This document shows, in pieces, positions 2,382-9,580 of a DNA stretch of 64,000 nt (position 1 is the first letter of the stretch; every line of letters starts with the position of its first letter). The notes beneath the pieces were generated by a model. The model had not been told where the DNA came from, made no database searches, and was given only the letters and a program-made list of their open reading frames with translations. The translations under genes and the position numbers were made by a program. This DNA comes from a virus (Duplodnaviria > Caudoviricetes): the IMG/VR virus record IMGVR_UViG_3300023714_000001. The stretch is one strand, 5' to 3'.

Positions 2382-2701
2382 TGAGTGCCAGTGCGGAAGC
2401 CATAAATAAAATTGGCACTGCTGCCAGCGGCGTTTTTAACTTCATGAAAGAACCATGGGTGAAGGGTTATAAATATGCTACTGGCGAAGGGCCAAAAACA
2501 TGGAAGGGTTTAGCTAAGGAAGCCTTTGGTGGTGCTGAAGGAGATTTAACTGCATTCAAGGTTGGCGACGAACGTTATAACGGTGCTAAGATTGCCGGCG
2601 CCTTAGGCGGGCTTGGTATCGGTTATCGTTTTGCCTCTGGCGGTGGCGCCTATAGAGATAAGAATGGCAACACAGATATCGCGGGTATACCCTTTATTTA
2701 A
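2381..2701 (+). CDS. Small Gly/Ala-rich protein, possibly virion-internal
   Basis: Overlaps the stop of the previous gene; hydrophobic Gly-rich segment. Confidence 0.55.
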   Translation: MSASAEAINKIGTAASGVFNFMKEPWVKGYKYATGEGPKTWKGLAKEAFGGAEGDLTAFKVGDERYNGAKIAGALGGLGIGYRFASGGGAYRDKNGNTDIAGIPFI

Positions 2702-2719
2702 AACTCGGAGGTTGTGTGA

Positions 2720-3091
2720 ATGGGTATTACTGGCAGTATTTTTAAGAAAGCCATGGGCGGCGCTAAAGCGTTTGATAACACCATGACCAAGGCGGCGGAC
2801 AAGGTTTTGCAGGCTCCCGGCAAAATCATCAGATATGATGAGTCTGGATTTCCTATAGGACTCAATAAAAAAGGTAAGGCTGTTCTTATTGGGGCAACAG
2901 CTGTGGGTTCGGCAGCCAGTGCATACAATGAGAATGAGCGTAAGCACTTAGGAACTATCGATAGTAGAATAGTCTCCCCTACTCCAGATTATTCTGTTTA
3001 CCGTAACGGCTCTACCCTGTCCGCTCCGGGTGGTGCAGACGGTTCCCTTGTATTTGCTTTGGATAAAACTAAGAATGGGGGCTTCTTGTAA
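2720..3091 (+). CDS. Small Gly/Ala-rich protein, possibly virion-internal
   Basis: GGAGG SD; KGKAVLIGATAVGSAA segment. Confidence 0.55.
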   Translation: MGITGSIFKKAMGGAKAFDNTMTKAADKVLQAPGKIIRYDESGFPIGLNKKGKAVLIGATAVGSAASAYNENERKHLGTIDSRIVSPTPDYSVYRNGSTLSAPGGADGSLVFALDKTKNGGFL

Positions 3092-3093
3092 TC

Positions 3094-3546
3094 ATGGGGA
3101 TTGGATCCAAGATCGTAAACAAGATGTTTAAAAACAGTAAAGGTGAATGGAGTAAAATGGCCATGGCCGGAACTGGCGCAAATTTGTATTTCGGCGCTTC
3201 AGAATATGCCGATAAACGTGCTGAGGGTGAAGGAATGATATCTGCCGGCCTTTCCGCGGCCGGAGATATTGCGCTGGGTATTCTTACTCCTATGCCGTTA
3301 TATATTGGTGCAATGATGGCCCCTGCACTTGCCGAAGGGGCGGTGGATGCATACCATGCCTTAGACCAGTACGGACGCCAGTTAAAATCACAGAGGCGAA
3401 ACCTGCCTTTTCAGAATGCTACCTTTGTAGATTCACAACAGACATATACGATGCGTCAGGCCGGCATGAACCTTGCACGGCAGGGACAAATGGCCGCGCA
3501 ACAGACTTCAATGGGTAACGAGGCATCTGCCTTTGCTCGTTATTAA
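3094..3546 (+). CDS. Small Gly/Ala/Met-rich protein, possibly virion-internal
   Basis: Tightly packed in the operon; hydrophobic middle segment. Confidence 0.55.
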   Translation: MGIGSKIVNKMFKNSKGEWSKMAMAGTGANLYFGASEYADKRAEGEGMISAGLSAAGDIALGILTPMPLYIGAMMAPALAEGAVDAYHALDQYGRQLKSQRRNLPFQNATFVDSQQTYTMRQAGMNLARQGQMAAQQTSMGNEASAFARY

Positions 3547-3566
3547 AAACTCGGAGGTGATACGAA

Positions 3567-4973
3567 TTGGCAGTTAGTTATGTTGGGGTAAATAAGGAAT
3601 TTGCAGGGGCGTGGCAAGACTCTGGTATGACCGAACTTCTTTCTGGTCAAGGAATGAGCGACAAGGAGATTAATCGGGTTATACGCAAGGCGAGCCGTAA
3701 TCATTGGGATTCGGAAGAGCAGACCGCTAAAGAGTTTGTTGGTGATGTGAAGAAACTCGTAGGTGGAGATGCGTTCTATAAAGACGATTATGGAAGCCTT
3801 TTCAGGGGTACATCACTCGAAGGTACAATTAACAGTATGCATACTCCTACCGCAGCGGAAAGATTAGATAATTATGCGCAAAACTACGATGTGAAAAACG
3901 GCATGTATACCGATGCTCAAATAAAAAGCATCAATAGGCGCATAAACAAATTGAATGGTGTTAAAAACACTGGCTCTCAATATACGGAACAAATGCAGGC
4001 AGAGTCAGAAATGAATCGAACGATACATGCCGCCGAACAAAGAAGAAATGCAAAAGAGAATTTATGGGGACAACAAGAAGCATCCGCTGAGCAATTAGCC
4101 GCAGAAGATAATTTGCGTGACTCCATAAGACATGGCGTAGACGATTCTACTGTTAGTACCCCAAAGAGACAATTGCGCAGACAAAGTGGTATGAAAGGGC
4201 GAAAACTTGACCTTGTTAATTGGGGGGAAGATGCAAAGACGCCCCAAACACCCACAGCTGTTCAAAAACAAATTGACAGTATGGTTGGGGCACCACACAG
4301 CGCAGCAAACAAGATGATTGCGGAAAAGATGGAACAGAGAGGAAAAACCTCTGTTTATAACGTGATGTCTCGTATGGATCGGCTACGCTCAAAGATCGAT
4401 CGAATCGATAACGCGGATCGAGAAACGTTACAAAGAAGTTTCTCCGAAGCTCATCTAAATGACATTTCCAAAAAAGCCAGTCACTTCACATTAAAGGAAA
4501 ATATGGCTAATAAGCTAGGGTATGTAAAAGCCGCCGCAAAAAACGTTACTGACTTCTTTATCGGAGGAAATACCGGTGGCGGACATATTCGTGCTCACAG
4601 AGAAAGTATCCAGCGTAAAATCGAGGAACGAGAAATGGATATGATGCGCGAGCAAAAGAAAGCTCCGCTTCAGAAAAGCATGGATAACCATCAGAAGCTA
4701 TTAGACAGAATTAATAATGGGGATAACGAAGCGTTACAGGCAACCCAAACTAAACGAGGAACCAGACAAATTTTAGCGCAAGACTGTATAGAAAAGCGCG
4801 CAGCGGCTAAAGCCGAACAAATGGCCAGCAAAGGCTTGGGCTGGAAAGGTAAGGCCGGTGCTGTAGCAGGTCTACTTGCTCTTGGCGGTATTATCGGTAA
4901 TCAGTTCGCGGGCGGCCATAAATCTAATGCCGAGCTCTACAACCCCAACCCGCAGCCACAATATTACAGCTAA
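3567..4973 (+). CDS. Helical protein with C-terminal hydrophobic Gly-rich segment
   Basis: TTG start after GGAGGTG; 468-aa ORF. Confidence 0.6.
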   Translation: MAVSYVGVNKEFAGAWQDSGMTELLSGQGMSDKEINRVIRKASRNHWDSEEQTAKEFVGDVKKLVGGDAFYKDDYGSLFRGTSLEGTINSMHTPTAAERLDNYAQNYDVKNGMYTDAQIKSINRRINKLNGVKNTGSQYTEQMQAESEMNRTIHAAEQRRNAKENLWGQQEASAEQLAAEDNLRDSIRHGVDDSTVSTPKRQLRRQSGMKGRKLDLVNWGEDAKTPQTPTAVQKQIDSMVGAPHSAANKMIAEKMEQRGKTSVYNVMSRMDRLRSKIDRIDNADRETLQRSFSEAHLNDISKKASHFTLKENMANKLGYVKAAAKNVTDFFIGGNTGGGHIRAHRESIQRKIEEREMDMMREQKKAPLQKSMDNHQKLLDRINNGDNEALQATQTKRGTRQILAQDCIEKRAAAKAEQMASKGLGWKGKAGAVAGLLALGGIIGNQFAGGHKSNAELYNPNPQPQYYS

Positions 4974-5049
4974 GTAAGATGTTTCACGCGTTTGCCAATG
5001 TTGCACGCTCTGGAATCCGCAGAATTATCAGCTTGATGTATTTTATGTA

Positions 5050-5079
5050 TTGCATTTTTCAAGTTTTCCATGGTAAAAT
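5050..5079 (+). promoter_or_regulatory. Sigma70/sigmaA-type promoter
   Basis: TTGCAT-18 nt-TAAAAT with extended -10 TG. Confidence 0.5.
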
Positions 5080-5101
5080 AAAAGCCATGGAGGTGAGGAT
5101 T

Positions 5102-5695
5102 GTGAACCCGCATCAACACTCACATGGCGGTGCCCGCCCCGGTGCAGGCAGGCCAAAAAAGAAAGCGCGTGACTTACAGAAAACACATAGCATCCGGGCT
5201 ACAGATAAAGACTGGAAGGAAATTCAATTGGCGGCCAGAACCATCAAGACGTGTTCTTCCATAGATAAACGCCCACGCATTTTTATGCTCACTGACGATG
5301 AACAAGATAAGGTAAACCAATTCCTTCTAAATGGACTTATCGAGGCTTGGCAAAATGCGCGTTGGGGTGAACCAGATACTACACCTCCACCCCAGCCACC
5401 TCTACTACAGGAACAAAAAGAAATAGAGATAACAAAGCCTCGCAATTTTAGCGAGGAAGAAGCAGTATCTATATTTCTTGAATACTATCGGACTAACCCT
5501 ATCGAGTCCATGTCTCTCATTCAAAGCAAACTTGAGCAAGAACAGCGAATTCGTGAAGCCAGAGAACGGCGGCAGCGGCAATCGGCAACAATGGATAAGT
5601 TCGATGAGAGAATGCAGAATGCTATGGACTCTATCGATGATATAAATGAACGCATAGCAAAGATGTTACAATTTCCTGGAGCCGGTACGAAATAA
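5102..5695 (+). CDS. Putative DNA-binding regulator (GGARPGAGRP motif plus ribbon-helix-helix-like segment)
   Basis: GTG 5102 after GGAGGTG; HGGARPGAGRPKK then KTHSIRATDKDWKEIQLAA. Confidence 0.5.
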   Translation: MNPHQHSHGGARPGAGRPKKKARDLQKTHSIRATDKDWKEIQLAARTIKTCSSIDKRPRIFMLTDDEQDKVNQFLLNGLIEAWQNARWGEPDTTPPPQPPLLQEQKEIEITKPRNFSEEEAVSIFLEYYRTNPIESMSLIQSKLEQEQRIREARERRQRQSATMDKFDERMQNAMDSIDDINERIAKMLQFPGAGTK

Positions 5696-5714
5696 TATCG
5701 TATCGGCTCTTTTT
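5680..5714 (+). terminator. Intrinsic terminator
   Basis: agccggtacga...tcgtatcggct hairpin followed by a T-run. Confidence 0.65.
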
Positions 5715-5816
5715 ATGTCTGACAATAGGGCAAATAAATACACATTGCCGGTAATACGGGGAATGAGTTCCTTAATAGCCATTCCCCTTTTCGTAGTGCT
5801 ATGGAGGAAAACTTCT

Positions 5817-6014
5817 TTGGATGAACGTAAGAAAATCAAGCTGCAACAGGCGGCAGCGATTTTAAAAAATCCGGTACTCTGGGCTAAAGCTTGTGTAAAA
5901 ACAGTGGATAATGCCACAAAACAAGTAGTACCTTGGGAAGCCAGATGGTATCAGAAAGAGATGCTTCTGGATAACTCTATAAAAAAAGTTGCTCGATGTG
6001 GGCGACGAACGGGT
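5817..6014 (+). CDS. terL: Terminase large subunit, exon 1 (66 aa)
   Basis: TTG after GGAGG; RWYQ adenine-binding Q motif; ends in CGRRTG, the first half of Walker A. Confidence 0.85.
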
Positions 6015-6176
6015 GGCACTCTGCCCGTCCCCGACAAATTGCTGGAATACCTGGCGGCACATCATAAAAAACGTCAGGGGAATCAGCAGCGAACCTTATA
6101 TTATATAAGGACGTTCAGAGACTAGACGCGGGGTCTGATTGTCTTGTAATCAGTTAAATAAAAAGGGGAATGCAGG

Positions 6177-6647
6177 ATGATTTTTGAAACTAAGCGCAAT
6201 GTAGTTAACAACGTATTTTCCGTAGAAATCTCTTTCGCCGGCTACGGCACAGATGAGATGGACGAAAAGCACGAACAGGCTCTCTTTAATGACCTGGGCA
6301 ATCCGGTTATCAATCTGGGTGCAATCGTGTTCGAAGGCCGCTTTGATGTTGATGGGGACAAGCGTGTTGTTCCCGCAGAAGGCGAAAACGGCGACGTTGT
6401 TAAGTTTATCCAGAATGTAAAACGCTATGAACTTGCTCCGGGCTTTGTTGTAAGCTTCAGTGCCGATGCCGGCGATGTTGCAAAGTCTGAGCTTGGCGAA
6501 AAACTCAACACGGCTCGTCTCGTAGCTGAAGCAAAGGCTCTGCTCTTCCAGCAGAAGGTACATGAAGCTATCAAGGCTGTCGTTGAGGAGCTGAAAGCGC
6601 AGCGCACCCGTTTTGAAACGGAGACTGTTGCCACTCTCACTGTCTAA
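6177..6647 (+). CDS. Intron-nested protein A (156 aa, no endonuclease motif)
   Basis: Own purine-rich SD; codon usage like the capsid genes; similar to 6665..7027. Confidence 0.8.
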   Translation: MIFETKRNVVNNVFSVEISFAGYGTDEMDEKHEQALFNDLGNPVINLGAIVFEGRFDVDGDKRVVPAEGENGDVVKFIQNVKRYELAPGFVVSFSADAGDVAKSELGEKLNTARLVAEAKALLFQQKVHEAIKAVVEELKAQRTRFETETVATLTV

Positions 6648-6664
6648 TAGGGGGTGCTTGCGAT

Positions 6665-7027
6665 ATGAAGCTGAAATACGATTATGTCGTGAAGAAGCGG
6701 AAGATTACCATAGAGCTCGAGACTGTGGATTTCACAAACAAGGAAATTCGTGCTCTCGAAATGCTTGGCGAACCGGTAATCAACTTTCAAAAAACATATC
6801 CGGGCGGATTTACCATTGCTTTGTCCAAGAAACTGCGCAGCGAGTTTAAGGCCCGCATTCGCATTGACGGGACAAATGATGTAGAGGCAGCCAATGAGGC
6901 TGGCCAAAAATTCCTCGCGGATATCAAGGAGCTTCTCGAGCTTGAAATGGAAAAACTGATGGACTCTTACGAAGATCAGGTTTTCCCGCCGATGCACGGC
7001 AAGCTCGACATTTCGGAATATAAATAA
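6665..7027 (+). CDS. Intron-nested protein B (120 aa, paralog of A)
   Basis: GGGGGTG SD; EIRALEMLGEPVINF matches EQALFNDLGNPVINL in A. Confidence 0.8.
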   Translation: MKLKYDYVVKKRKITIELETVDFTNKEIRALEMLGEPVINFQKTYPGGFTIALSKKLRSEFKARIRIDGTNDVEAANEAGQKFLADIKELLELEMEKLMDSYEDQVFPPMHGKLDISEYK

Positions 7028-7095
7028 TCCGTAAATATTAAATTCAAGACAATCGGAAAGGGATAGTCCTGGCCGGAGTTTTTATTTCCGGCTTG

Positions 7096-7854
7096 AAGAC
7101 CGAAACCATGTGCATAGATTCATTGCACAAGGCTTGCACTAATCGCTCGTTTGTATGCCTGTACGCAGCACCGTATGAGGTTCAGATACGAGCGATTTTT
7201 AACCGTTTGAACGAACTTATTTCTCTTTCCCCTGCTCTGCAGGCTATGGTAGTTTCCAATACAAAAACACCATTTGAAATTAAGTTCAATAACGGTTCTG
7301 CAATACGTGGCCAGACCACAGGCGCATCGTCGGGCGGCGGCGCTGTAGGGTTTCGTGGCCAGAGGGCTGACGCCCTTTACTTGGATGAATCTGACTATAT
7401 GAGCAATGCGGATTTTGACTCGATCCTGGCCATTGCGGCCGAACGAGAAGGGATACGTGTATTTCTCTCGAGTACCCCAACCGGCGCGCGTAAGCGTTTC
7501 TGGCAGGCGTGCACAGATCCAAGTATGCATTTTAAGGAATTCCACTATCCATCTACATGTAACCCTCAGTGGGGTCCAAAGATGGAAGAAGAATTCCGTT
7601 CCCAGTTATCTGAGCAAGGTTATATCCATGAAGTTATGGCTGACTTTGGTTCTCAGGAAACCGGTGTATTTGATAAAGATAAAATCGACGCGGCAATGAA
7701 GTTTATGCGGTATGCATATTCTCCTCTCACCTACTCTCAAAAAATGAAGGTAGATGAAAATGGATGGAATGTGGAAATGTATATTCCTCCTGAGAATATG
7801 ACGATAGGCGTATACAAACCAACTAAGCTGCGCACAATGGGAATTGACTGGGAT
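7096..7854 (+). CDS. terL: Terminase large subunit, exon 2 (253 aa)
   Basis: KTET completes Walker A; Walker B LYLDE; coupling motif SSTP; ends in GIDWD (first nuclease Asp). Confidence 0.9.
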
Positions 7855-8749
7855 AAGAAAATTAACATATTTTCATTGTATAGACTCTTGGCTTGGTAAT
7901 ACTGGGCCAGGAGGACTGATACAGATTGAAAAAAAATTCTCAAGGCGCAAGAAGACACACAGTAAATGCGGAATATTTTAAAAACATTACTACTCCACAA
8001 CAGGCCTACTGGCTTGGTTTCATAATGGCTGACGGATGTGTTTATCACGGGAGTGATAAGAACTCTTATAGATTACAGATAAATCTATCTGCGGTTGACG
8101 CCGAACATTTGTCAAAATTTAACAAAGCTATAGAATCAGATTATGCCATTATAAGGAAGGCTATACATAATAAGAAAACAGGAAAAGATTACGAAGTTGT
8201 ACAATTAAAAATTAACTGTACACAAATGTGTAAAGATTTAATCGCCTTAAATGTGACTCCTAAAAAGTCTTTAACATGTGAATTTCCTGACTTAGACCAG
8301 TCGTTATTGCCTCACTATTTGCGGGGGTATTTTGACGGCGACGGATGTATTACGGAAAGTAAAGGCAAATGGCATATATCTATTGTTGGTGGTGAACCTA
8401 TGCTTCGTTCACTCCAAGACTATTTGGTTGATAATGATATATCATCCGCGATATACCAAATCAATCATTCAAAAGCCGTATCACTGGAGATTAGTAATTT
8501 AAAAAGTATTTCACGCTTCTACAAATTAATATATGAAGAGGCGGATGTCCTTCTTGAGCGAAAATATGAGAAGTTTGCAGCATTTAATTTGTCCCGCCAC
8601 ACAGGAATGTGTGGGCAATAATCAGGTAAATTGCTGGAATGCGTATGCTGCGCGAGAATCAGCAGCCAAGCCCGATTTATCGGGAAGGTTCAGAGACTAG
8701 AGACCTGATATCCAGACCGGATAATAGTATAGTCCACTTATGTTAAGTG
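7855..8749 (+). ncRNA. Group I intron 2 in terL (895 nt) with LAGLIDADG ORF in the P1 loop
   Basis: Exon UGGGAU|AAG pairs with guide UUUGUCCCG (8588-8596) including U-G; P2 ccacac/gtgtgg; P3 atcaggt/acctgat; P, Q, R and S motifs at 8628-8735; terminal G at 8749; splicing restores GIDWD|KYG. Confidence 0.92.
7926..8621 (+). CDS. LAGLIDADG homing endonuclease (intron-encoded)
   Basis: AYWLGFIMADG and YLRGYFDGDG motifs; AGGAGG SD; AT-rich. Confidence 0.9.
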   Translation: MKKNSQGARRHTVNAEYFKNITTPQQAYWLGFIMADGCVYHGSDKNSYRLQINLSAVDAEHLSKFNKAIESDYAIIRKAIHNKKTGKDYEVVQLKINCTQMCKDLIALNVTPKKSLTCEFPDLDQSLLPHYLRGYFDGDGCITESKGKWHISIVGGEPMLRSLQDYLVDNDISSAIYQINHSKAVSLEISNLKSISRFYKLIYEEADVLLERKYEKFAAFNLSRHTGMCGQ

Positions 8750-9580
8750 AAATACGGCGCATCATCGTCAATCATTATTCTCGATTATGTGCCTCGCTTT
8801 GGCCGATTTATGGTAGTGAGAAGAATCGAAGTTCCAAAAGCAGAATACAGCTTCGATAAGGCTGTAAACATGATTATTGAATTAAATAGGGTTTATAACC
8901 CAGCATTTATTTATGCGGATAGAGGGTCCGGCGAATACCAGCTAGAGATGCTGCATAAATACGGGGATCAGCATCCTGAGTCTGGCCTTAAATTAAAAGT
9001 TAAGGGATTCCAGTTCTCGCAAAAGATTCCGGTTATTGATCCCGTTACACACGTTACCGATCAAAAACCAATGAAGCCATTTATGGTGAACCAGTTGAGC
9101 ATGTGTATTGAGCGCAATCAGCTTATCATGTCTCCATTTGACGAGACACTGCATAAGCAGTTGGTCGACTACGAAGTTGTTCGCGTCGGTGCTAACGGCA
9201 ATCCCGTATACACGAGTGTAAACGAACACTTTGTAGATGCTCTGGGTTTAGCGTTCTTAGCATTCGCGCTTGAAATGCCAAATGTTGCTAAGACAATTGA
9301 AGATGTGGACTTTACAGCTCACATGATTAACGGTGAGTCTCCGTTTGCCAAGAGAGACAATGCTCCGACAGGCAAGAACTGGCGGGGCGCATCTAACCCA
9401 TGGAGCAATGCAAGTCTAATGAACGGCACTGTCTCTTATAAAGACGCTCAGGATAAGAGCGATGGGGATCAGCCAAAATTCTTCCGCGCACCACTTGCTG
9501 GTACAGCTGCCAGAAGAAAGAGTAATTGGGGATCCAGAAGAAGCTCGGGTTTTGGCTTTTGTGGAAGATCAATGTTCTGA
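8750..9580 (+). CDS. terL: Terminase large subunit, exon 3 (nuclease domain; spliced product about 595 aa)
   Basis: IYADRG and EHFVDAL motifs of the RNase H-fold terminase nuclease. Confidence 0.88.
   Translation, partial: KYGASSSIIILDYVPRFGRFMVVRRIEVPKAEYSFDKAVNMIIELNRVYNPAFIYADRGSGEYQLEMLHKYGDQHPESGLKLKVKGFQFSQKIPVIDPVTHVTDQKPMKPFMVNQLSMCIERNQLIMSPFDETLHKQLVDYEVVRVGANGNPVYTSVNEHFVDALGLAFLAFALEMPNVAKTIEDVDFTAHMINGESPFAKRDNAPTGKNWRGASNPWSNASLMNGTVSYKDAQDKSDGDQPKFFRAPLAGTAARRKSNWGSRRSSGFGFCGRSMF

Follow-up and report, generated by a model that had tools for sequence, protein, structure and literature searches.

The window analysed here is a stretch of 64,000 nucleotides from an uncultured jumbo phage, whose 211-kb genome is rich in introns and carries two of them in terL alone. 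In this window, terL consists of three exons on the plus strand, and the first of its introns contains two ORFs, designated A and B, in the loop closed by its P8 stem. The features of the locus are as follows.

5817-6014, plus strand: terL exon 1; likely start TTG at 5817, with GGAGGA at 5803-5808; frame open from 5715
6015-7095, plus strand: group I intron 1, 1081 nt and IA-like, separating the Gly codon from the Lys codon in the Walker A motif of terL
6015-6133, plus strand: 5' half of the ribozyme; partial match to Rfam RF00028, 117.5 bits with our own model R1, covariation
6029-6033 with 6129-6133, plus strand: P3, read in the sequence
6040-6045 with 6083-6088, plus strand: P4; P4, P5 and P6 together span 6040-6110
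6120-6124 with 7064-7068, plus strand: P7, read in the sequence; GACUA (after J6/7) with UAGUC (after J8/7)
6134-6146, plus strand: 5' strand of P8, 13 nt, complementary to 7045-7057
6177-6647, plus strand: ORF A, 156 aa, in the P8 loop, with its own purine-rich Shine-Dalgarno (SD) sequence AAGGGG
6665-7027, plus strand: ORF B, 120 aa, in the P8 loop, with its own purine-rich SD sequence AGGGGGUG
7045-7057, plus strand: 3' strand of P8, partner of 6134-6146
7058-7095, plus strand: 3' part of the ribozyme, with J8/7, the 3' strand of P7, the P9 hairpin (7071-7093) and the terminal G (7095)
7096-7854, plus strand: terL exon 2 (KTETMC...), ATPase domain; Pfam Terminase_6N, PHROG 2
7855-8749, plus strand: group I intron 2 with a LAGLIDADG ORF (7926-8621), neighbouring context; boundaries inferred from the L022 protein
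8750-9580, plus strand: terL exon 3, nuclease domain

The likely start of terL is in line with the tblastn matches of relatives, which begin near residue 31-49 of the frame that opens at 5715. Exon 1 ends at 6014 with ...GGG CGA CGA ACG GGT, which encodes GRRTG of the Walker A motif, exon 2 begins at 7096 with AAG ACC GAA (KTE...), and the two exons are continuous in the terL of intron-less relatives, such as L022. A terminator-like hairpin is located directly upstream of terL (5678-5710), and no sigma-70-like promoter was found on the coding strand inside intron 1. The second intron yielded an Rfam match at 8542-8755 (41.3 bits) and a match to model R1 at 8601-8712 (61.5 bits), and its ORF belongs to the Pfam family LAGLIDADG_3 (E 3e-14). 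Among phage isolates, the nearest TerL proteins are those of Moorella phage MTATph1 (44 %) and of Bacillus jumbo phages (31-40 %), and the phage is a distant relative of Moorella phage MTATph1 and Bacillus phage 0305phi8-36. A search of phage isolates at the DNA level yielded nothing beyond a short terL match. An assignment to the crAss-like phages, first prompted by the giant ORFs downstream, was dropped in view of the tail sheath, the myophage-type module and the 0305phi8-36-like relatives of TerL.

A sequence-only reading of this DNA had described a complete group I core (P1 with a U-G pair, P3, P4, P7, P9 and a terminal G) that splits the Walker A motif of terL, and a 13-bp P8 stem around a loop of approximately 900 nt with two ORFs. 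Every one of these elements was found, including both P8 strands and both ORFs. P1 is formed by ACGGGU (6009-6014) and the guide sequence GCCCGU (6023-6028), with the U-G pair at the splice site, and P8 consists of 12 Watson-Crick pairs and one G-U pair, with a duplex energy of -21.4 kcal/mol versus -9.8 +/- 2.2 in shuffled sequences. In 19 contigs from related phages, the same intron occupies the same position, ac[ag]ggt|aa[ag]ac. The terminal G is conserved in 19/19 of these homologous introns, as is the complementarity of the P8 strands (19/19), the stem sequences themselves being unrelated. Compensatory changes among them were detected in P1 (G-to-A/C-to-U in L011, L037 and L067), P3, P5, P6, P7 (GACUA/UAGUC to GACUG/CAGUC in L013) and P8, and 18 of the 28 pairs obtained with RNAalifold for the 5' half, from an alignment of 11 of the 19 introns, exhibit double-sided changes.

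The search with group I models that had been proposed along with that reading succeeded in part. The Rfam model Intron_gpI (RF00028) matched 6029-6133 with 32.7 bits (E 7e-6), covering model positions 49-158, from P3 to P3'. This partial match appeared in E-value mode only, and the gathering threshold (50 bits) was reached nowhere in the whole window, because the 900 nt that interrupt P8 are more than the model can span. A 162-nt homolog of the intron in L058, which contains no ORF, matches the whole Rfam model (48.3 bits, E 2e-11) with the terminal G at its end, and its minimum-energy fold includes P1, P3-P6, P8 and P9. The region 6015-7095 is confirmed as a conserved, IA-like group I intron, as judged from this comparison of sequences. 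The unreached gathering score could be taken to mean that the insert is no intron, and that terL is a split gene made as two parts or the insert is removed in some other manner. However, this is extremely improbable, given that 19 lineages have a full group I core, supported by covariation, precisely between the two codons, that the ORF-less homolog in L058 is a full-length Rfam match near the threshold, and that exon 1 runs up to the junction with no stop codon and exon 2 lacks a start as well as an SD sequence.

Each of the two ORFs was found to possess the SD sequence of its own that had been attributed to it. The AF2 model of the ORF A product (pLDDT 90.5) combines a beta-sheet with a C-terminal helix of 28 residues and a conserved tail, and that of the ORF B product (pLDDT 87.4) has the topology beta-beta-alpha-beta-beta-beta-alpha. 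A and B match each other by hhalign (E 4e-4), and the B profile also detects ORF A in the phage's own genome (E 5.5e-4); on these profile matches, A and B are distant, tandem paralogs of an orphan alpha/beta family. Both are present in one copy each in the 211-kb genome. The B family comprises 80 clusters among 1.84 billion representatives, and no B homolog was found in the phage isolate collection. Of the 58 B-family members compared, one acidic residue only is nearly invariant, beside a Gly-x-Pro turn.

Searches of A and B against Pfam, PHROGs, NCBIfam and PADLOC gave no endonuclease or other usable family match; in the first three databases there was no match at E up to 1, with the LAGLIDADG ORF at 7926-8621 as positive control. 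The terminase small subunit (TerS) families of Pfam and PHROGs were likewise not matched. These results are in accord with the earlier statement that neither ORF has a LAGLIDADG, GIY-YIG or HNH motif, as the LAGLIDADG domain in the next intron was readily detected. Structure searches were performed with Foldseek against PDB (A only) and BFVD (A and B), with VIA-align wide (A and B) and against the ESM Atlas by shape (A) or by features (B). No fold match beyond the proteins' own family was found in PDB, BFVD or Atlas (best Z 4.6 for A and 5.2 for B), and no nuclease was among the structural neighbours (Foldseek E >= 0.03), although a missing match does not exclude a nuclease fold. The weak top neighbours of both models were ribosomal proteins, a hibernation factor and RF1 domain 3, with Z values of 4-5 that correspond to the noise level. 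The predicted complex of A and B received a score of 0.00, which, having no controls, gives no verdict and is neutral on binding. The possibility that the ORFs represent an unrecognised endonuclease or maturase family, raised together with the first description of the locus, is weakened by the lack of family and fold matches but retains some probability.

A and B are under purifying selection approximately as strong as that acting on terL (dN/dS of about 0.04-0.06 versus 0.03 for terL exon 2), and both are intact in about 30 lineages, among which no decayed copies were seen. Their codon usage resembles that of highly expressed late genes (capsid and sheath genes) and is unlike that of the LAGLIDADG ORF. 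A has a GC3 of 0.50 and B one of 0.56, and the CAI relative to structural genes is 0.77 for A and 0.67 for B, compared with 0.87 for MCP, 0.78 for the sheath gene and 0.54 for the LAGLIDADG ORF of the next intron (GC 0.36). These values agree with the capsid-like codon usage previously ascribed to the two ORFs, as opposed to that of an AT-rich endonuclease, and suggest that A and B are probably well expressed.

Whether homologs of A and B in related phages lie inside or outside terL, a question put by the sequence-only reading, was answered in both ways: they are located in the intron in some relatives and stand free upstream of an intron-less terL in at least five lineages. A and B directly precede an uninterrupted terL in L022, L027, L064/65 and L069, and B alone does so in L051. 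The same upstream gene family is found before the cassette in the intron-borne and free-standing arrangements, and a terminator-like hairpin lies between the cassette and terL in L064 and L051. No full intron copies were found beside free-standing cassettes with Rfam or model R1. In L069, the cassette is flanked by a decayed J6/7-P7-P7.1 region, an 18-bp P8 stem and a P9 hairpin, which are homologous to the sequences of its sister L067; these relics, detected by pairwise alignment only, have a z of about 6 versus shuffles. The cassette of L022 lies within a stem of approximately 36 bp (-33.9 versus -17.8 +/- 3.7 kcal/mol), and apart from this stem no significant intron relics were seen in L022, L064 and L051. 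The free-standing copy of L069, at least, descends from an intron-borne one and not the reverse. Clear relics are confined to L069, and the other free-standing copies may have arisen in either direction. Next to its free-standing genes, L069 also retains a target compatible with the intron (acaggt|aaaacg), which has been neither re-invaded nor changed.

In L058/59, which have at least four introns, the intron is present and the cassette is absent, and in L048, L102 and L045 neither the intron nor its cargo is found nearby. Neither A nor B was detected within 4-5 kb of terL in L048, L102, L045/46/55, L043 and L066, no homologs were found anywhere in two partial genomes (60-62 % complete), and A is absent from the L068 record, whose genome is rated 100 % complete. 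Other relatives contain inteins at the same Walker A site. The states observed at this one site are a 162-nt ORF-less intron, an intron with one gene, an intron with two genes, a decayed shell around free genes, and an intein. The free-standing pair in relatives, the relics of L069, the stem of L022, the ORF-less 162-nt intron and the same-site inteins are new findings of the present analysis.

The TerL tree implies at least eight changes of state for the intron at this site and, for the cassette, at least six presence changes and at least five switches between intron-borne and free-standing positions. The earlier view that the intron is hard to lose is half true in the face of these state changes, of the absence of both elements in L048, L102 and L045 and of the intron without cargo in L058. 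The A+B tree is congruent with the TerL tree, intron-borne and free-standing copies being interspersed. A transfer of complete cassettes from one phage to a distant one was rejected as the cause of this pattern, as the A+B tree contains no grouping of the intron-borne copies; exchange between close relatives is possible. A Loizos-type comparison made by eye revealed no similarity between the cassette flanks in P8 and the exon junction. A and B had also been regarded as ordinary-looking phage genes placed in an intron. The comparison does not bear out a capture of ordinary genes: members of the A/B family were met nowhere but inside this intron site or next to it, and the free copy of L069 is derived from an intron-borne one.

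We consider it somewhat probable that the two-gene cassette in the P8 loop, where intron ORFs usually reside, serves the phage, with the intron as its carrier; the cassette is not a recognisable homing endonuclease. A and B stand free in relatives that have no ribozyme, or persist where it has decayed, so that the cargo outlives the ribozyme and has a function of its own. Much of the nested operon envisaged in the sequence-only reading is retained in this proposal, namely a conserved intron, ORFs that are not recognisable endonucleases, purifying selection, late-gene codons and persistence in the absence of the ribozyme, whereas the capture of ordinary genes is not. Three observations count against a cassette that serves the phage: it is not universal in the clade; its patchy presence, with at least six changes and at least five switches, is the pattern of mobile genes; and the restriction of the family to this site or its immediate vicinity is the behaviour of intron-associated genes.

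These same features would be expected if A and B formed a two-subunit homing or mobility module, free-standing beside its target or residing in the target-site intron and kept by its own spread; they would then be the founders of a seventh family of homing endonucleases or mobility proteins. Inteins in relatives mark the Walker A site as a hot spot, the distribution is patchy both in presence and in position, the family is confined to the site, and endonuclease families are still being discovered, F-CphI reportedly being an example. Furthermore, every ORF so far characterised in a phage group I intron is a homing endonuclease (PMC3984707 and established knowledge), the alternation between free-standing and in-intron positions matches endonuclease-gene invasion or collaborative homing (PMC3984707), and P8 is a usual endonuclease slot, as in phage SPO1 (PMC3073962). 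Nevertheless, we regard such a module as unlikely. A and B have no nuclease motif or profile, the B family offers a single nearly invariant acidic residue among the 58 members compared, and their codons are those of late genes with high expression, the opposite of what is seen in the adjacent LAGLIDADG gene. In addition, dN/dS is close to that of terL with no decayed copies in about 30 lineages, only a single copy is present per genome despite the many introns, and the target in L069 stays uninvaded beside the free-standing genes.

Two further roles of A and B were considered. The classic position of TerS is immediately upstream of terL, which is where the genes are located in L022, L027, L064/65, L069 and L051 (inside terL in the window), and small proteins with a long C-terminal helix, a conserved tail and strong selection would also suit TerS or another obligatory partner of TerL whose capture by the intron was incidental. 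However, no TerS profile matches, the N-terminal domain is beta-rich with no helix-turn-helix seen, a terminator-like hairpin separates the cassette from terL in L064 and L051, the pair is missing near terL in several members of the clade (L048, L058, L102, L045 and L066) and from the two genomes that are 60-62 % complete, and A is absent from the L068 record rated 100 % complete; such a partner is thus quite improbable. Even less probable, in our judgement, is a role in splicing, with A and B as RNA-binding cofactors (maturase or RNA chaperone) of the many group I introns of these phages. The present genome is rich in introns, two of them in terL, both models have small RNA-binding alpha/beta proteins as their weak top neighbours, and a location independent of the intron would still be useful if other introns needed the factor. 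Against this, Z values of 4-5 are noise by the tool's own calibration, relatives with several introns in terL have no cassette near that gene (L058/59, with at least four introns, and also L048 and L102), and the 162-nt ORF-less homolog folds into a full core by itself.

If the cassette does serve the phage, as we favour, the intron would be a phenotypically neutral carrier. Transcription would proceed from the terL promoter, the 13-bp P8 stem would join the two halves of the ribozyme across about 900 nt, and the exons would be ligated. A and B would each have a Shine-Dalgarno site to start translation, with the precursor, the excised intron or both serving as mRNA, the coding loop of the excised intron being closed by the P8 stem. 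The A and B proteins would serve the phage and not the intron, most likely as an abundant late accessory hetero-oligomer tied to head or packaging functions. Plain precise loss of the intron would be costly because the cargo is selected, and the several lineages that lost the ribozyme may have kept the cargo through a local rearrangement that placed exon 1 behind the cassette. A bolder version, which we hold to be doubtful, is that a non-nuclease, phage-beneficial cassette is expressed from the excised intron, that the P8 clamp turns this RNA into a base-paired closed-loop mRNA, that the ribozyme is addictive and that the clamp is functional by itself. In that case, abundant synthesis of A and B would be tied to terL transcription, and the clamp, kept in L022 and L069 after the ribozyme was discarded, would be a functional RNA element in its own right.

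To our knowledge, an ORF in a phage group I intron is taken for a homing endonuclease almost automatically. In the present phage, an intron of an essential gene houses two genes that are conserved, apparently well expressed and not recognisable as endonucleases, and the series of states at a single site provides a rare case in which the interests of an intron's cargo and of its host may become entangled and the cargo may escape the ribozyme. Should A and B prove to be a nuclease or a splicing factor, they would represent a new protein family for either role. The locus also has a consequence for annotation, in that a split terL with orphan small ORFs between its pieces will be mis-called in metagenomic jumbo phages.

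Several known systems invite comparison. IStrons are group I introns fused to an IS200/605 transposon, with the transposase at the 3' end of the ribozyme. They share with the present intron a group I ribozyme with a multi-gene cargo other than endonucleases, but no transposase is present here and the cargo lies in P8. In fungal mitochondria, rps3 is housed in the mL2449 group I intron of rnl. There, as here, a group I intron holds a gene whose role is cellular and not in mobility, and a host that lost the intron would lose this gene with it; however, that intron resides in an organellar rRNA gene and contains one known ribosomal protein gene, whereas the present one resides in a protein-coding phage gene and contains genes for two orphan proteins, and its cassette is found now inside the intron, now in an intergenic location.

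Endonuclease-gene invasion and collaborative homing are exemplified by F-CphI, free-standing beside psbA in a cyanophage, and by T4 mobE and I-TevIII (PMC3984707). The resemblance is that members of one family are located either free-standing beside the target gene or inside the target-site intron, and that an ORF-less form of the intron exists (L058). Unlike in collaborative homing, a free-standing gene and an ORF-less intron were not seen together here. Unlike in the invasion model, the free-standing copy of L069 is derived from an intron-borne one, which is the opposite direction, and no nuclease activity is indicated. The Jug phages, uncultured intron-rich jumbo phages of the gut, have terL and other essential genes split by group I introns and inteins, with splicing confirmed by metatranscriptomes (PMC12880540). 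Their inserts encode endonucleases or intein domains, with no conserved non-endonuclease cargo described (PMC12880540), in which they differ from the present phage; like it, they are uncultured jumbo phages in which terL is interrupted by several group I introns.

Mobile phage introns of group I with a homing endonuclease ORF in a peripheral loop are represented by the T4 td intron with I-TevI and the SPO1 DNA polymerase intron, the latter with an HNH ORF in P8 (PMC3073962). The present intron shares with them an IA-like ribozyme in a conserved codon of an essential phage gene, a P8 loop whose ORF has a ribosome-binding site of its own, a sporadic occurrence in relatives and LAGLIDADG genes in neighbouring introns. 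What distinguishes the present intron from them is that it contains two paralogous ORFs that match no nuclease family, motif or fold, and that this cargo has the codons of highly expressed genes and a dN/dS close to that of its host gene, and outlives the decay of the ribozyme.

The terL gene of the window is divided into three pieces, and the first interruption (intron 1, 6015-7095), which splits the Walker A motif between its Gly and Lys codons, is built on a conserved group I ribozyme whose P8 clamp is long. All of the elements named in the sequence-only reading (P1, P3, P4, P7, P8, P9 and the terminal G) were recovered in place.

Features of the window
5817-6014: terL exon 1, probable TTG start at 5817, ending in GRRTG
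6009-6014 with 6023-6028: P1, U-G pair at the splice site
6029-6033 with 6129-6133: P3
6040-6045 with 6083-6088: P4
6120-6124 with 7064-7068: P7
6134-6146 with 7045-7057: P8, 13 bp
6177-6647: ORF A, 156 aa, own purine-rich ribosome-binding site
6665-7027: ORF B, 120 aa, own purine-rich ribosome-binding site
7071-7093: P9
7095: terminal G of intron 1
7096-7854: terL exon 2, beginning KTETMC, matching Terminase_6N and PHROG 2
7855-8749: second intron (group I), inserted after the DWD and before the KYG codons, with a LAGLIDADG gene at 7926-8621 (GC 0.36)
8750-9580: terL exon 3, after this LAGLIDADG-bearing insert
39342-64000: three consecutive giant ORFs (2231, 3080 and >2865 aa), 3' of the tail genes

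The genes around terL include those for the portal, prohead protease, major capsid protein (MCP) and a 1014-aa tail sheath, as well as the three giant ORFs, and the isolates closest in TerL are Moorella phage MTATph1 (44%) and then Bacillus jumbo myophages including 0305phi8-36 (31-40%). Because the window is also part of a 211-kb virus record (rated 90% complete), we conclude that the phage is a myophage of the jumbo type that has not been cultured; judging from its Shine-Dalgarno usage, the host may belong to the Firmicutes. A 238-aa ORF (4979-5695) with a GGARPGAGRPKKK motif and no family match follows the conserved upstream gene on the 5' side of terL exon 1, is confined to the window and its closest relatives, and precedes a strong terminator-like hairpin (5678-5710) directly 5' of terL.

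As the sequence-only reading had proposed, group I models were searched: the Rfam model aligns with 6029-6133 (P3 to P3'; E = 7e-6), with a score below gathering because 900 nt interrupt P8. Comparative evidence outweighs this match and, at the level of sequence, identifies intron 1 as a real group I intron. Among approximately 100 related terL loci gathered from viral and metagenomic contigs (mostly partial, so that 'absent' means not within the fetched flanks), a homologous intron occupies the identical site, ac[ag]ggt|aa[ag]ac, in 19 distinct lineages. All 19 introns end in G and carry their ORFs in P8. Their P8 stems have no sequence in common, yet are complementary in every case, with duplex energies far under shuffled controls in most. 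Compensatory changes are present in P1, P3, P5, P6 and P7, and 18 of the 28 RNAalifold pairs, computed from 11 of the homologous introns, show double-sided changes. Two lineages, L058 (3891-4052) and L059 (3959-4120), contain an ORF-less 162-nt form at the same Walker A site, whose core is complete and whose P8 is a 6-bp hairpin. It scores 70 bits with R1, a model of our own, is aligned end to end by Rfam (48.3 bits), and gives P1, P3-P6, P8 and P9 in its minimum-energy fold. The Azoarcus group I intron, at 205 nt, is longer than the L058/L059 intron, which may therefore rank with the smallest group I introns in nature.

The frame of exon 1 continues 111 nt into intron 1 and stops at a UAG (6123-6125) inside the 5' strand of P7 (GACUAG); therefore, ribosomes on unspliced RNA would unwind P1 to P7. 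Close relatives L002-L006 lack the LAGLIDADG ORF of the second intron and contain a different LAGLIDADG-bearing insert ~180 nt further on. Thus, the introns of terL exons 2 and 3 come and go, and intron 1 with its cargo stays.

The P8 loop holds a conserved, selected and non-endonuclease-like pair of paralogous genes. The ORFs had been described as free of endonuclease motifs, and this was borne out: neither matched any Pfam, PHROG, NCBIfam or PADLOC family in searches that do detect the neighbouring LAGLIDADG gene. Their AlphaFold models are confident (pLDDT 90.5 for A and 87.4 for B), and structural libraries yielded no convincing neighbour (best Z 4.6 and 5.2, respectively). A and B are distant paralogs on the basis of the same order of secondary-structure elements in the two models, an hhalign match (E = 4e-4) and the B-family profile, whose single match in the phage's own genome is ORF A (E = 5.5e-4). 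Small in size, the B family comprises 80 clusters out of 1.84 billion representatives; nearly all members are stand-alone proteins of about 60-215 aa, mostly 116-140 aa. Judged by substitution rates, both genes are under strong purifying selection, with dN/dS values of 0.04-0.06 against close relatives (0.03 for terL exon 2). The guess that their composition resembles that of highly expressed late genes also held (GC3 0.50 and 0.56, and CAI 0.77 and 0.67, for A and B; CAI 0.87 for MCP and 0.78 for sheath), in contrast to the LAGLIDADG ORF (GC 0.36, CAI 0.54). From this codon usage, A and B can be read as abundant late proteins.

Every phage that carries A or B falls into a single, well-supported clade of the TerL tree (39 rows), within which the 5' end of terL takes many states. 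The nesting inside terL, which was to be checked in relatives, recurs in those with an ORF-bearing intron; in others, the genes are free-standing upstream.

States of the terL 5' end (L-numbers are related phage lineages)
Intron with A and B: window and at least 16 other lineages
Intron with one B-like ORF: L047, L068
ORF-less intron: L058, L059
A and B free-standing, directly upstream of uninterrupted terL: L022, L027, L064/65, L069
B alone, free-standing, upstream of uninterrupted terL: L051
B free-standing, with an in-frame intein at the P-loop: L050
Intein only: L043, L066
Neither intron nor cargo within 4-5 kb: L048, L102, L045/46/55

In both intron-borne and free-standing arrangements, the cassette is preceded by the same upstream gene family (window 3567-4973), and the difference is therefore strictly local. 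The arrangements are interleaved in the TerL tree, with at least five switches between intron-borne and free-standing, at least six changes in cassette presence and at least eight in intron presence. The TerL and A+B trees are in agreement; both, for instance, place intron-borne L067 and free-standing L069 together as a fully supported sister pair.

Several other features were observed at these loci. More distant relatives (L043, L050, L066, L072, L076-78, L082, L085 and L089) have in-frame insertions of 188-423 aa, bearing Hint-type motifs (..TGNHP..), at the P-loop site between terL exons 1 and 2; thus, one DNA site hosts inteins in some phages and the group I intron in others. Just upstream of terL, L048 encodes a 413-aa P-loop ATPase (2508-3749) and L013-L015 contain a Rep3-type initiator gene (2506-3894), to which L015 adds an IS605 OrfB/TnpB gene (1131-2354). 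Intron 1 and the cassette have both been lost from L048, whose Walker A region is divergent (GRRMGKSETL). The region 5' of terL is a hot spot for insertions in general. In L022, the free-standing ORF A is preceded, at a distance of ~230 nt, by a RAGATH-18 RNA motif (3475-3545; 68.9 bits, above the gathering score), which lies within a 350-nt AT-rich spacer.

The free-standing cassette of L069 is enclosed by decayed remains of the intron that its sister L067 carries (local alignment, z ~6 versus shuffles). J6/7, P7 and P7.1 sequences are recognisable upstream of A, an 18-bp P8 stem (about 3766-3783 with 4681-4698) brackets A and B, and a conserved P9 hairpin lies 3' of B. Nothing remains of P1-P6 or of the original exon 1; downstream of the relic, exon 1 is present intact and joined to exon 2. 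These relics indicate that at least one of the free-standing copies arose from a copy carried by the intron. On this sequence evidence, the cargo outlived the ribozyme in at least one lineage, and we claim this direction for L069 only. The only relic detectable in L022 is a ~36-bp stem around the cassette (3662-3699 with 4711-4749; -33.9 versus -17.8 +/- 3.7 kcal/mol). The inverted repeats of L022 and L069 look like retained P8 stems, and their persistence without the ribozyme suggests a role of their own, for example as an RNase III site, mRNA clamp or terminator. A plausible route would start with insertion of a complete exon 1 between the intron 3' end and exon 2, the donor being perhaps a spliced transcript or a related co-infecting phage that lacks the intron. 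Splicing would then no longer be needed, and the former exon 1 would decay together with the ribozyme's 5' half.

As a whole, we lean, with slightly better than even confidence, towards a self-splicing intron carrying A and B as expressed proteins that serve the phage. Intron 1 would excise itself from the terL transcript, and A and B would be translated from their own ribosome-binding sites, on either the precursor or the excised intron. Within this reading, the constant position of the genes at the terL start points to a role linked to the head or to packaging. That the region is not an intron at all is hardly credible beside the 19 homologous introns. A and B may constitute a new mobility or homing module: alternation between free-standing and intron-embedded forms, a patchy occurrence and confinement of the family to the Walker A hot spot are all behaviours of homing endonuclease genes (PMC3984707). 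Near-invariant positions across 58 B-family members are limited to one Glu and a Gly-x-Pro turn, a pattern unlike that of a metal-dependent nuclease site, and we consider such a module unlikely.

A TerS-like obligatory partner is a distinctly improbable form for the pair to take; the L068 record, rated 100% complete, contains no A homolog. A function as splicing cofactor seems very improbable.

Introns and inteins in phage terL, as well as intron-rich jumbo gut phages, are already known (PMC3984707; PMC12880540), as are ORFs in P8, e.g. in SPO1 (PMC3073962). In the literature, we found no description of a phage group I intron with a conserved non-endonuclease gene pair as cargo, or of a free-standing gene pair retaining the shell of a former intron. 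The nearest analogy is fungal mitochondrial rps3, where a group I intron harbours a gene of host type.
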